Assembly: GCF_013315695.1 (NCBI RefSeq)
Contig: NZ_CP054353.1
Strand: one strand, 5' to 3'
DNA length: 64,000 nucleotides
From: Escherichia coli
GTDB lineage: Bacteria > Pseudomonadota > Gammaproteobacteria > Enterobacterales > Enterobacteriaceae
In this document: positions 32,003 through 34,116 of the stretch, piece by piece
How the letters are laid out: each line of letters starts with the position of its first letter
Numbering within the stretch: the first letter of the stretch is position 1
The notes under the pieces: generated by a model
Told to the model about the DNA's origin: nothing
Databases searched by the model: none
Seen by the model: the letters and a program-made list of their open reading frames with translations, nothing else
Position numbers and translations under genes: made by a program

Positions 32003-32281
32003 TTATTTTGTCATCTGCACGTATTTTTCTGCGCTCCTGATTGTTTTCAGGAAAAGAGCGAAGAGATTTACTGTGCGTCTTGAGTTCTTTTCATCCTGGT
32101 TGATGGGAATTGAACCTCTGTCAGCCTGTCTTTTCACTGTGTTAACAGCTTGGTTAGTACGCTTTGCGTAATCTTTCAGGCTTTCTTCAAGTACTGGTAA
32201 CCCATGCTCATCGCGGTAGGGATAGAACGCTGCTAAACGCTCAAAGTCTGCCTGTTCGTGTGTGTTCAGGACTTTTGCCAT
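32003..32281 (-). CDS. cox: Cox/Apl-like early regulator (first gene of early operon)
   Basis: Divergent from repressor C; internal segment YAKRTNQAVNTVKRQADRGSIP resembles the P2 Cox helix-turn-helix region. Confidence 0.5.
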   Translation of the reverse strand: MAKVLNTHEQADFERLAAFYPYRDEHGLPVLEESLKDYAKRTNQAVNTVKRQADRGSIPINQDEKNSRRTVNLFALFLKTIRSAEKYVQMTK

Positions 32282-32320
32282 GTGTGATAACCTGCGCTAT
32301 CTGTGGTTGTTTGTGATCTG

Positions 32321-32373
32321 GTGTACTTATAAGTACACCTTGTGCGCAAGCTTAGTGTACTTATAGGAACACT
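32321..32373. promoter_or_regulatory. Operator-like palindromes in the C/cox switch region
   Basis: GTGTACTTATAAGTACAC perfect 18-bp palindrome at 32321..32338 and related AGTGTACTTATAGGAACACT at 32354..32373, between divergent cox-like and C genes. Confidence 0.5.
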
Positions 32374-32377
32374 GTCA

Positions 32378-32686
32378 ATGCTTATCGGTGAAAAAATTAG
32401 AGTGATTCGTGAATCAGAGGATTTAACGCGCGAAGAATTTTGCGGCCTGATTGATGTGCCTATCGGCACTTTGCGTCGTTATGAAACGGGGCGGATTGAA
32501 AACATAGGGGGCGAAGTGCTTATCAAGATTGTTAATCACCCTCGCTTTTTTAAGTACATGAATTGGCTTATGACGGGAAAAACAAATGAGGCTGCTGGGC
32601 AGATCAGTCCGTCTCTCTCCCCTGATGGGCCAAAAAGCACATCGCCTTCTCAAAAACCCCGCAAGACTGGCACACAGCCCGGCTAA
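32378..32686 (+). CDS. C: Immunity repressor C
   Basis: MLIGEKIRVIRESEDLTREEF...GTLRRYETGR...HPRFFKYMNWLMTGK resembles P2 C repressor. Confidence 0.7.
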   Translation: MLIGEKIRVIRESEDLTREEFCGLIDVPIGTLRRYETGRIENIGGEVLIKIVNHPRFFKYMNWLMTGKTNEAAGQISPSLSPDGPKSTSPSQKPRKTGTQPG

Positions 32687-32735: not shown

Positions 32736-33710
32736 ATGAGCATAAAATCAATTCCGGGAGGATATCTTCTTGACATGCGCCCGGAGGGGCGTAAAGGCAA
32801 ACGCATTCGTAAAAAATTTAAAACGAAATCGGATGCAGTTTTATATGAGCGGTGGGTGCTGGCGCAACAGCATAACAATGAGTGGAAAGGAAACTCCATT
32901 GATCGCCGTCCGCTGTCAGTGCTTATTGACTTGTGGTGGAAATACCACGGTCAGCTAATGAAGTCAGGGCATAACACGCGCCTTAAATTGCTGCGCTTGA
33001 GTGAGGCAATGGATGACCCGTGCGTGCATAAACTTAATACAACGATGCTCACCGAGCTACGTGTGTCCAGGATAGAGCAGGGGATACAGCCCAGCACCAT
33101 AAATCGAGAGATTGGGGCGTTAAGCGCGATGTTTACCGCACTCATCTCATCCGGCCATTTTCTTAACGATAACCCCGTTCAAGGCCTTAAAGGAATGAAG
33201 GTTAACGAGCGCGAAATGGGATATCTGAGTAAGTCTGAATGTGTTCAGTTGCTGGATGCACTGGCTGAAAATCCCGATGAACGGCTGGCTGTCGAAATCC
33301 TTCTGTCGACCGGGGCGCGATGGGGCGAGGTAGCGGCACTGGAGCAGCGCCGTGTTCTTCATTGTCGAATCACTTTTTCAAAAACGAAGAACAGCAAAAA
33401 CCGTACCGTTCCTATTTCTGAAAGCCTGTTTGAAAAGATCAAAAAACGGGGCGGGAAACTGGTGTTTCCGACGCTGGATTATCCATTGGTTCGCGATGTC
33501 ATCAAAACGGTCGCACCTGATGTTCCTGACGGCCAGGCTGTTCATGCGCTGCGCCACACCTTCGCCAGTCATTTCATGATGAACGGCGGCAATATTCTGA
33601 CGCTCCAGAAAATTCTGGGGCACGCAAAGATTCAGACAACGATGATTTATGCCCATCTTGCGCCGGATTACTTGCAGGATGCGGTGAGATTTAATCCTAT
33701 TGCTGGGTAA
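32736..33710 (+). CDS. int: Tyrosine integrase
   Basis: ...LSTGARWGEVAAL...HALRHTFASHFMMNGGNILTLQKILGHAKIQTTMIYAHLAPDYLQDAV closely resembles P2 Int. Confidence 0.9.
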   Translation: MSIKSIPGGYLLDMRPEGRKGKRIRKKFKTKSDAVLYERWVLAQQHNNEWKGNSIDRRPLSVLIDLWWKYHGQLMKSGHNTRLKLLRLSEAMDDPCVHKLNTTMLTELRVSRIEQGIQPSTINREIGALSAMFTALISSGHFLNDNPVQGLKGMKVNEREMGYLSKSECVQLLDALAENPDERLAVEILLSTGARWGEVAALEQRRVLHCRITFSKTKNSKNRTVPISESLFEKIKKRGGKLVFPTLDYPLVRDVIKTVAPDVPDGQAVHALRHTFASHFMMNGGNILTLQKILGHAKIQTTMIYAHLAPDYLQDAVRFNPIAG

Positions 33711-33720
33711 GGAGGATGTT

Positions 33721-34116
33721 GTGGAAAAAACAGTTAATAGCGATTTGCATTTAGGTCAGTACTGGAGAATAGACATTGTCTGCGATCCAGAACTTCGAGA
33801 TGAGGTTGAGCAATATTTTTCTCGACACGATGTTGGTTTTAGCAAAATTGAAGTTTTTTCCGTCGAAAATCCATATAAACTTGCTCTGTTCTTTGATTTC
33901 GCGAAGAAGGGTGTGGAGGTTGCAAAAGCCATTATGGGACTCTTAGACCGAAATGATATTGAAATAACGATGTATCGTGCTACGGACAGTAGCCCGCAGT
34001 CTGTAAAAAGCATCAAATTGCGTAAGTCTGAAGACGTAGAGAAATGTAAAGATTTGCTTAGTACGTGTGTCGCAATTGGCGTTCAACGAAATAAGGAAAA
34101 AGAGGGGAGCGAATGA
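33721..34116 (+). CDS. AT-rich cargo gene between int and the host junction, unknown function
   Basis: In-frame GTG 33721 five bp after AAGGAGGA RBS; 131-aa acidic protein; no family recognised. Confidence 0.55.
   Translation: MEKTVNSDLHLGQYWRIDIVCDPELRDEVEQYFSRHDVGFSKIEVFSVENPYKLALFFDFAKKGVEVAKAIMGLLDRNDIEITMYRATDSSPQSVKSIKLRKSEDVEKCKDLLSTCVAIGVQRNKEKEGSE

Follow-up and report, generated by a model that had tools for sequence, protein, structure and literature searches.

The best-described relatives of the switch analysed here are the immunity regions of the phages P2, P2 Hy dis and WPhi. The repeats published for their C repressors are 8 bp long and 22 bp apart in P2, 8 bp long and 26 bp apart in P2 Hy dis, and 10 bp long and 34 bp apart in WPhi. 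At the promoter Pe, these sites flank the -10 element in P2 and WPhi and the -35 element in P2 Hy dis. In the P2 record, the Pe -35 is annotated as overlapping the C start codon and is followed by O1 (within the -35/-10 spacer), the -10 and finally O2. WPhi C can bind a single site, whereas P2 C needs both. In its crystal structure, P2 C is a symmetric dimer with recognition helices 26 Å apart, like the palindrome-binding P22 c2 (PMC2995052), and NMR likewise shows a dimer of two-fold symmetry. The sites of the family are described as non-palindromic direct repeats, and the binding of a symmetric C dimer to such DNA has been called puzzling (PMC2995052); the P2 C family is accordingly cited as a rare symmetric dimer reading non-palindromic direct repeats.

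Our window, meaning the whole 64-kb stretch of DNA analysed, holds a comparable locus, which is organized around three genes.

32378..32686, plus strand: immunity repressor gene C (102 aa, XRE-type helix-turn-helix; Pfam HTH_3)
32003..32281, minus strand: Cox-like gene, first of the early operon (92 aa; PHROG 575 'Cox-like excisionase and repressor', E 1.1e-7)
32736..33710, plus strand: tyrosine integrase gene, second of the C operon (Pfam Int_N and Phage_integrase)

C and int lie on one strand and cox and the early genes on the opposite strand, with a C-cox spacer of 96 bp. The 102-aa repressor matches the P2 C repressor (PDB 2XCJ/2L49) over residues 3-98 with an E-value of 2.5e-15, and on this sequence comparison the right-hand gene is a true P2 C homologue. 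In the alignment, the residues at the P2 specificity positions (positions from PMC2995052) are I29, T31, R33, R34 and R39, and R11, Y35 and E36 correspond to the strictly conserved R13, Y37 and E38 of P2. The closest C in the phage collection is 52% identical, P2 C about 46% and WPhi C 38% (E 1e-24). The Cox-like protein connects to P2 Cox through intermediates; its match to P2's own Cox is confined to 25 residues (E 0.001), a BLAST comparison with the Cox of the P2-like phage L004 gave no direct match, and a Pfam search with the 92-aa ORF returned nothing.

The prophage is adjoined by btuC, beyond the integrase. Many E. coli chromosomes, O157:H7 among them, contain the same 901 bp (identity at least 97%), there as part of a complete P2-family prophage beside btuC. 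The backbone is P88-like (Xuanwuvirus), with 84-92% identity over the replication and structural genes. The repressor protein is found on at least 1000 contigs, mostly of E. coli (including O26 and O45 strains) and some of Shigella and Citrobacter, and is annotated with generic names alone, such as 'helix-turn-helix transcriptional regulator'. The switch itself is absent from every record of the phage collection (50,697 records): when its DNA was searched against them, the spacer and C gene were unmatched and the neighbouring DUF4761 gene alone gave a match. As a result, the comparison was made through proteins and prophages.

About 34 kb of the prophage lie to the left of btuC, and its left end is probably beyond the window start. 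No attL/attR direct repeat of at least 14 nt turned up when the int-btuC region was searched against the first 30 kb. A 138-aa ORF lies between the integrase and btuC (within 33700-34116), for which PADLOC gave no match. The content of this slot differs among relatives: O157:H7 FRIK2069 (L001) has two other genes there, for a hypothetical protein and a DUF1640 protein, and two further relatives (L002 and L003) carry a 131-aa ORF. Cargo or moron genes may be housed in this slot, at the end of the prophage.

Two related sequences occupy the C-cox spacer.

32320..32339, unstranded: putative distal operator copy (away from C; P2 O2 equivalent), a perfect 20-bp palindrome with halves GGTGTACTTA and TAAGTACACC
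32354..32373, unstranded: putative proximal operator copy (next to C; P2 O1 equivalent), AGTGTACTTATAGGAACACT, with an 18-nt core at 32355-32372

The distal copy, GGTGTACTTATAAGTACACC, is the longest perfect palindrome in the window and consists of GGTGTAC arms around an AT-rich TTATAA centre. It is also the only one with arms of at least 10 nt, of which 0.06 are expected per window on the basis of 200 dinucleotide-preserving shuffles. Its 18-bp core (32321-32338, exact 18-mer GTGTACTTATAAGTACAC) is matched at 16 of 18 positions by the second copy, GTGTACTTATAGGAACAC, at 32355-32372, which is itself an imperfect palindrome with 6 of 8 pairs symmetric. The two copies start 34 bp apart, with a gap of 16 nt between the 18-mers. 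When up to three mismatches are allowed, the 18-mer occurs twice in the window compared with 0.01 occurrences expected, a count reached in none of 100 shuffles. Exact identity between the copies is limited to the left arm and centre, which form an 11-bp direct repeat (GTGTACTTATA, at 32321-32331 and 32355-32365); the perfect right arm is the addition of the distal copy. The original prediction had reported a perfect 18-bp palindrome and an imperfect copy 15 bp downstream, between divergent cox-like and C genes. The palindrome is present and perfect, but its true length is 20 bp and the 18-mer is its core; the copy is likewise present, but at a gap of 16 nt. The placement between these genes is borne out by the PHROG, Pfam and PDB matches of the flanking genes.

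Elsewhere in the prophage, a perfect 16-bp palindrome (AAAAAACGCGTTTTTT, 23177-23192) is the second-longest in the window and looks like the core of a bidirectional terminator.

For comparison across the family, we collected 80 viral loci encoding C relatives, together with P2, WPhi and several named phages, and anchored their C-cox spacers on TGTCAA, the reverse complement of the Pe -35. This hexamer is kept in all 23 anchored representative spacers, which cover about 12 immunity classes. All 23 share a layout of TGTCAA, an 18-nt block, a -10-like hexamer, about 7 nt and a block of about 22 nt, the block after TGTCAA being 17 nt rather than 18 in P2 and WPhi. The corresponding signals in the window are as follows.

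32373..32378, minus strand: predicted Pe -35, TTGACA, overlapping the first base of the C start codon
32349..32354, minus strand: predicted Pe -10, TAAGCT, at an 18-nt spacer; 3 of 6 consensus positions (T1, A2 and T6) kept
32265..32293, plus strand: candidate Pc (tentative), with -35 TTCAGG (32265-32270), a 17-nt spacer and extended -10 TGaTAACCT (32285-32293)
32365..32368, plus strand: likely Shine-Dalgarno sequence of C, AGGA, 9 nt before the ATG; read from the sequence, with a presumed function
32283..32317, plus strand: three TGTGRT direct repeats (tentative) at 32283, 32302 and 32312, spaced 19 and 10 nt apart, in the cox-proximal part of the spacer

In a weight-matrix scan, the predicted Pe is the top match on the minus strand (11.8 bits, compared with 6.2 for the next). 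The scan was checked on P2, where it recovers the annotated Pe (14.5 bits) and the Pc -10. A promoter and terminator scan at default threshold reported no promoter at the switch and no terminator-like site. At the position of the predicted -10, other classes carry TAAATT, TATATT, TAAGAT or TATACT. The core of the proximal copy (32355-32372) fills exactly the 18-nt spacer between the predicted Pe -35 and -10, and the distal palindrome lies at about +4 to +23 of the predicted Pe transcript. By position homology and promoter prediction, the two copies would therefore flank the Pe -10 at the positions of P2 O1 and O2. The AGGA of the likely ribosome-binding site arises from the G at 32366 and the A at 32368, the two bases that break the symmetry of the proximal copy.

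On the plus strand, the best match is the candidate Pc (8.3 bits). L002 and L003 conserve it, and in the anchored spacers the Pc -10 of P2 falls no more than about 7 nt away. TATAAG at the palindrome centre was considered as a Pc -10 and rejected, since it lacks a usable -35 and classes C and D do not conserve it. The TGTGRT repeats overlap the extended -10 of the candidate Pc and are largely conserved in L002 and L003, which have the same Cox-like protein. In classes whose Cox is of another type, CCGGATT repeats take their place. The TGTGRT repeats are possibly the binding boxes of the Cox-like protein.

The sites follow the C gene rather than the Cox-like gene. In L034/L130, the Cox-like protein is only 38% identical to that of the window, yet C helix 3 (PIGTLRRYETGR) and the two operator sequences are the same. 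In L052, the Cox-like protein is 96% identical, yet C is of a different class and the operator sequences are unrelated. The exact 18-mer is present on 45 viral contigs, 37 of which have it in the C-cox spacer and always beside a C with helix 3 PIGTLRRYETGR. The other eight matches are outside any C-cox spacer. In the three of these that were inspected (L094 1102-1119, L095 1082-1099 and L111 595-612), the 18-mer is inside an ORF and encodes VLISTP, preceded by G in L111 and L094 and by R in L095; in L095 and L111 the ORF product, about 237 aa long, is antirepressor-like. These three were rejected as operators and represent a coding coincidence in unrelated viral contigs.

Comparison with heteroimmune relatives, namely L002 (HUSEC2011) and L003, shows how far this linkage extends. 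Identity to the window is 33-63% within one block and mostly 80-100% on either side. Divergence sets in at about 32315, the left edge of the distal palindrome, and continues to about C codon 65.

32315..32570, unstranded: exchangeable immunity cassette of about 250 bp, containing both predicted operators, the Pe core and C codons 1 to about 65

Because the divergence forms a single block, the predicted operators, Pe core and helix-turn-helix domain make up one exchangeable unit. From about residue 66 onward (TGKTNEAAGQISPSLSPDGP..., 32570-32686), the final third of C shows near-identity in DNA sequence between heteroimmune classes, whereas the N-terminal domains of C are only about 40-55% identical across the same classes, which points to a recombination breakpoint inside the C gene. 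The C tail and integrase are common to the window, L002 and L003. In P2 C, the extreme C-terminus is disordered and the last nine residues are dispensable for repression.

Within the class, the polymorphism of about 30 near-identical loci was too sparse to reveal constraint, and the diverged L130 and L134 were used instead. In the window, L130 and L134 backgrounds, 76 of 80 operator positions (95%) are identical, compared with 59 of 106 for other spacer DNA; the segment between the sites is identical at 8 of 14 positions in each of the two comparisons. The distal 20-mer is kept at 20/20 and 19/20 positions in these two diverged backgrounds, the one change being its leftmost base, and the proximal 20-mer at 19/20 and 18/20. 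Among the IMG/VR relatives of the window class, two rare natural variants have operator substitutions: in L027 the distal left arm reads GTGTGC and the proximal copy GGGACAC, and in L024 the proximal copy reads GGAATAC. These could be decaying prophages or tolerated operator variants.

Symmetry at the operator position recurs in other immunity classes. We scored nine-pair symmetry along the anchored spacers of 13 class representatives. Seven of the 13 reach at least 7/9 at 41-44 nt from TGTCAA, a level attained elsewhere only once at 10 nt (the proximal site) and once at 20 nt. The following palindromes illustrate the range.

L081 (G class): ATGGAGCTAATTAGCTCCAT, perfect, 20 bp
L004 / L-413C type (J class): GGAACCTATATAGGTTCC, perfect, 18 bp
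L078: CAAGGGATACATATGTAACCCTTG, 11/12 pairs
L062: CTAAAAGTCGTCTATAGGCGACTTTTAG, 13/14 pairs
Klebsiella element: TTGGTTCAT..ATGAACCAA, 9/11 pairs

Arm complementarity holds in 95 of 130 cells, compared with 54 +/- 6 when the right arms are permuted among classes, and none of 5000 permutations reach 95. The arms covary, with up to four pair types per position. Little symmetry is seen at the distal anchored position in P2 or in class D (L003 type). In WPhi (L086 at about 1061-1078, beside the Pe -35), the C-proximal copy, with halves GTCACCAA and TAGGTTAC, is symmetric in 6 of 8 pairs and shares the register of the palindromes found in other classes; symmetry is weak in the distal block of WPhi, where the outer arms AAGGT...ACCTT are symmetric. 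Immunity classes I-VII were reportedly defined by Karlsson et al. in 2006. Palindromic P2 C-type operators are not described in the literature searched, a search that did not extend to Karlsson et al. 2006.

Taken together, we consider that the two repeats are probably the operators of the prophage's C immunity repressor and define its immunity, with a probability of roughly 0.78. This agrees with the original prediction that they are likely C repressor operators, which is supported by the homology of C, the P2 O1/O2 positions, the 34-bp spacing of WPhi and the covariation with the C helix-turn-helix. The accompanying proposal that they set immunity specificity has comparative support, in that the sites covary with the DNA-binding domain of C and not with the Cox-like gene. 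When compared with known P2-family half-sites, as had been suggested, the locus proved to have the same architecture, but there is no sequence match and the palindromy is unusual. Several observations count against the operator reading. The predicted Pe -10 matches the consensus at only three of six positions, the promoter scan at default threshold missed Pe, the characterised P2, P2 Hy dis and WPhi repressors are reported to act on non-palindromic direct repeats, and 34 bp is a non-integral number of helical turns. In addition, P2 and class D are little symmetric, and L027 and L024 are substituted within the sites.

For the family as a whole, we suggest tentatively, and at slightly less than even odds, that symmetric recognition is common and probably ancestral, with one C dimer per palindrome of about 18-20 bp and two sites flanking the Pe -10. 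The sites of P2, P2 Hy dis and WPhi would then be decayed forms in which one arm was lost to promoter or ribosome-binding-site constraints. If true, an ancestral symmetric mode would account for the reading of asymmetric DNA by a C dimer with two-fold symmetry. The ability of WPhi C, but not of P2 C, to bind a single site would be explained as well, since the two differ in degree of symmetry and the proximal WPhi site is symmetric in 6 of 8 pairs.

The main competing account is the model published for P2 C, under which the 11-bp direct repeat GTGTACTTATA alone would be read specifically, by one monomer of each dimer, with the other monomer bound non-specifically and the distal symmetry incidental. 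The sole experimental data in the family support this model, and the window offers it some backing: the exact identity of the copies is confined to the left arm and centre, the WPhi half-site is in the same register (left arm and centre), and the right arm of the proximal copy is degenerate. We nevertheless regard it as unlikely here. It leaves unexplained the covarying symmetry at the same anchored position in most independent classes, the perfect 10+10 symmetry is beyond chance, and the right arm is conserved as well as the left in diverged backgrounds (20/20 and 19/20). That such palindromes arose by chance and lack function is close to negligible in probability. The only point in favor of chance is that AT-rich centres are common in promoter regions, and it is contradicted by the shuffle statistics, the conservation in diverged backgrounds and the recurrent covarying symmetry.

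A role in RNA is very unlikely, although the distal copy lies within the predicted leaders of both transcripts. It could form a 5' hairpin in the Pe and/or Pc transcript, with a stem of 8 bp, a loop of 4 nt and folding energies of -11.5 kcal/mol for the Pe strand (z -4.1) and -13.3 kcal/mol for the Pc strand, and so affect stability, attenuation or interference by convergent transcription. However, any DNA palindrome folds in this way automatically, the proximal copy folds no better than shuffles (z -0.5), and the hairpin is accompanied by neither a T-run nor a terminator-like site. Moreover, an RNA element need not covary with the recognition helix of a repressor. This covariation also bears on whether the sites are bound by the Cox-like protein, or by a host factor such as IHF, instead of C. 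Cox proteins also act in the C-cox spacer and the Cox-like gene is adjacent, but the operator sequences are unchanged where the Cox-like proteins are 38% identical and wholly changed where they are 96% identical. Known Cox and Apl sites are short direct repeats with helical-turn spacing on the Pc side, and candidate boxes of that kind are present separately, at 32283-32317. We therefore judge this assignment to be highly improbable.

If the repeats are C operators, the following mechanism can be proposed. A single C dimer of two-fold symmetry would occupy each 18-20 bp palindrome, placing a recognition helix (I29/T31/R33/R34/R39) on each GGTGTAC arm around the TTATAA centre. Two dimers, 34 bp apart (32-34 bp across classes), would bind together and bend the DNA, the bending being proposed by analogy with P2 and WPhi. 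Located on the -35/-10 spacer and the initial transcribed region, the dimers would exclude RNA polymerase from Pe. With Pe blocked, the Cox-like early operon would be silent, and lysogeny and superinfection immunity would be maintained. The proximal copy may be imperfect because it doubles as promoter spacer and ribosome-binding site of C. A single cassette of about 250 bp carries the predicted operators together with the C helix-turn-helix domain, is inherited as a unit and would define the immunity class. More speculatively, the distal site is about 20-40 nt into the candidate Pc transcript, and C at high levels could roadblock its own synthesis.

Recognition of each palindrome by one dimer makes clear predictions: the isolated distal palindrome should tightly bind one dimer, right-arm mutations should be as harmful as left-arm ones, and the window, L130 and L134 should be homoimmune. 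The operators would define an uncharacterised immunity class of P2-family prophages and predict which phages are homoimmune. As biology the switch is textbook; palindromy at the operator position across the family, however, goes undescribed in the literature searched. The many palindromes at this position provide a simple, testable answer to the puzzle of the symmetric dimer. In addition, the perfect 20-bp palindromes are ideal substrates for the still-missing C-DNA co-crystal.

Other described switches resemble the locus in part. The controller of the Esp1396I restriction-modification system, C.Esp1396I, resembles P2 C structurally and binds cooperatively, with one dimer per directly repeated palindrome (PMC2995052), which is how C is proposed to bind here. 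Its palindromes are 15 bp apart centre to centre compared with 34 bp here, it serves a different biological system, and the likeness is structural and by way of P2 C. The lambdoid repressors P22 c2 (18 bp, PDB 2R1J) and 434 cI (14 bp) are likewise symmetric helix-turn-helix dimers on palindromes with an AT-rich, non-contacted centre, and P22 c2 superposes on P2 C with the same 26 Å spacing of recognition helices. Lambdoid switches differ in having three adjacent operators that two repressors, CI and Cro, share at divergent promoters, in contrast to the two copies and (predicted) face-to-face promoters of this locus, where the second repressor, the Cox-like protein, has its own candidate sites. 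An operator of the lambdoid OR/OL type was rejected given that there are two copies only and a P2-type face-to-face promoter arrangement. Phage 186 belongs to the P2 family and its CI immunity repressor reads inverted repeats at pR. However, CI is unrelated to the repressor here: it has 196 aa in two domains, assembles into 14-mers and has an establishment promoter that depends on CII; a switch of this type was rejected, as the repressor here has 102 aa and is of the P2 C type.

WPhi is close in architecture. It shares with the window a homologous repressor, the 34-bp spacing, one copy in the -35/-10 spacer and one after the -10, and the register of the core. The operator sequences are unrelated, however, and the backbone is P2-like in WPhi and P88-like here; the sites of the window are palindromes of 18-20 bp, one of them perfect, whereas those of WPhi are described as non-palindromic. 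P2 itself has a homologous C, a Pe -35 over the C start, a first site within the spacer and a second beyond the -10, and the same order of C-int and cox. Its O1 and O2 are asymmetric 8-bp direct repeats (GTTTAGAT) 22 bp apart, compared with the symmetric sites of 18-20 bp at 34 bp here, and the Cox-like protein of the window is from another subfamily than P2 Cox. The window thus has the hallmarks of the P2 C type in its C homologue of about 100 aa with an N-terminal helix-turn-helix, its C-int versus cox/early gene order with the operator in the C-cox spacer, its direct-orientation copies within 22-34 bp centre to centre (here 34 bp) and, by prediction and position homology, its sites flanking the Pe -10. 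It departs from the type in one respect: in place of non-palindromic half-sites, the distal site is perfect over 20 bp and the proximal site is symmetric in 6 of 8 pairs. For this reason, the sites of the window are best viewed as a variant, rather than a plain member, of the P2 C-type operators.
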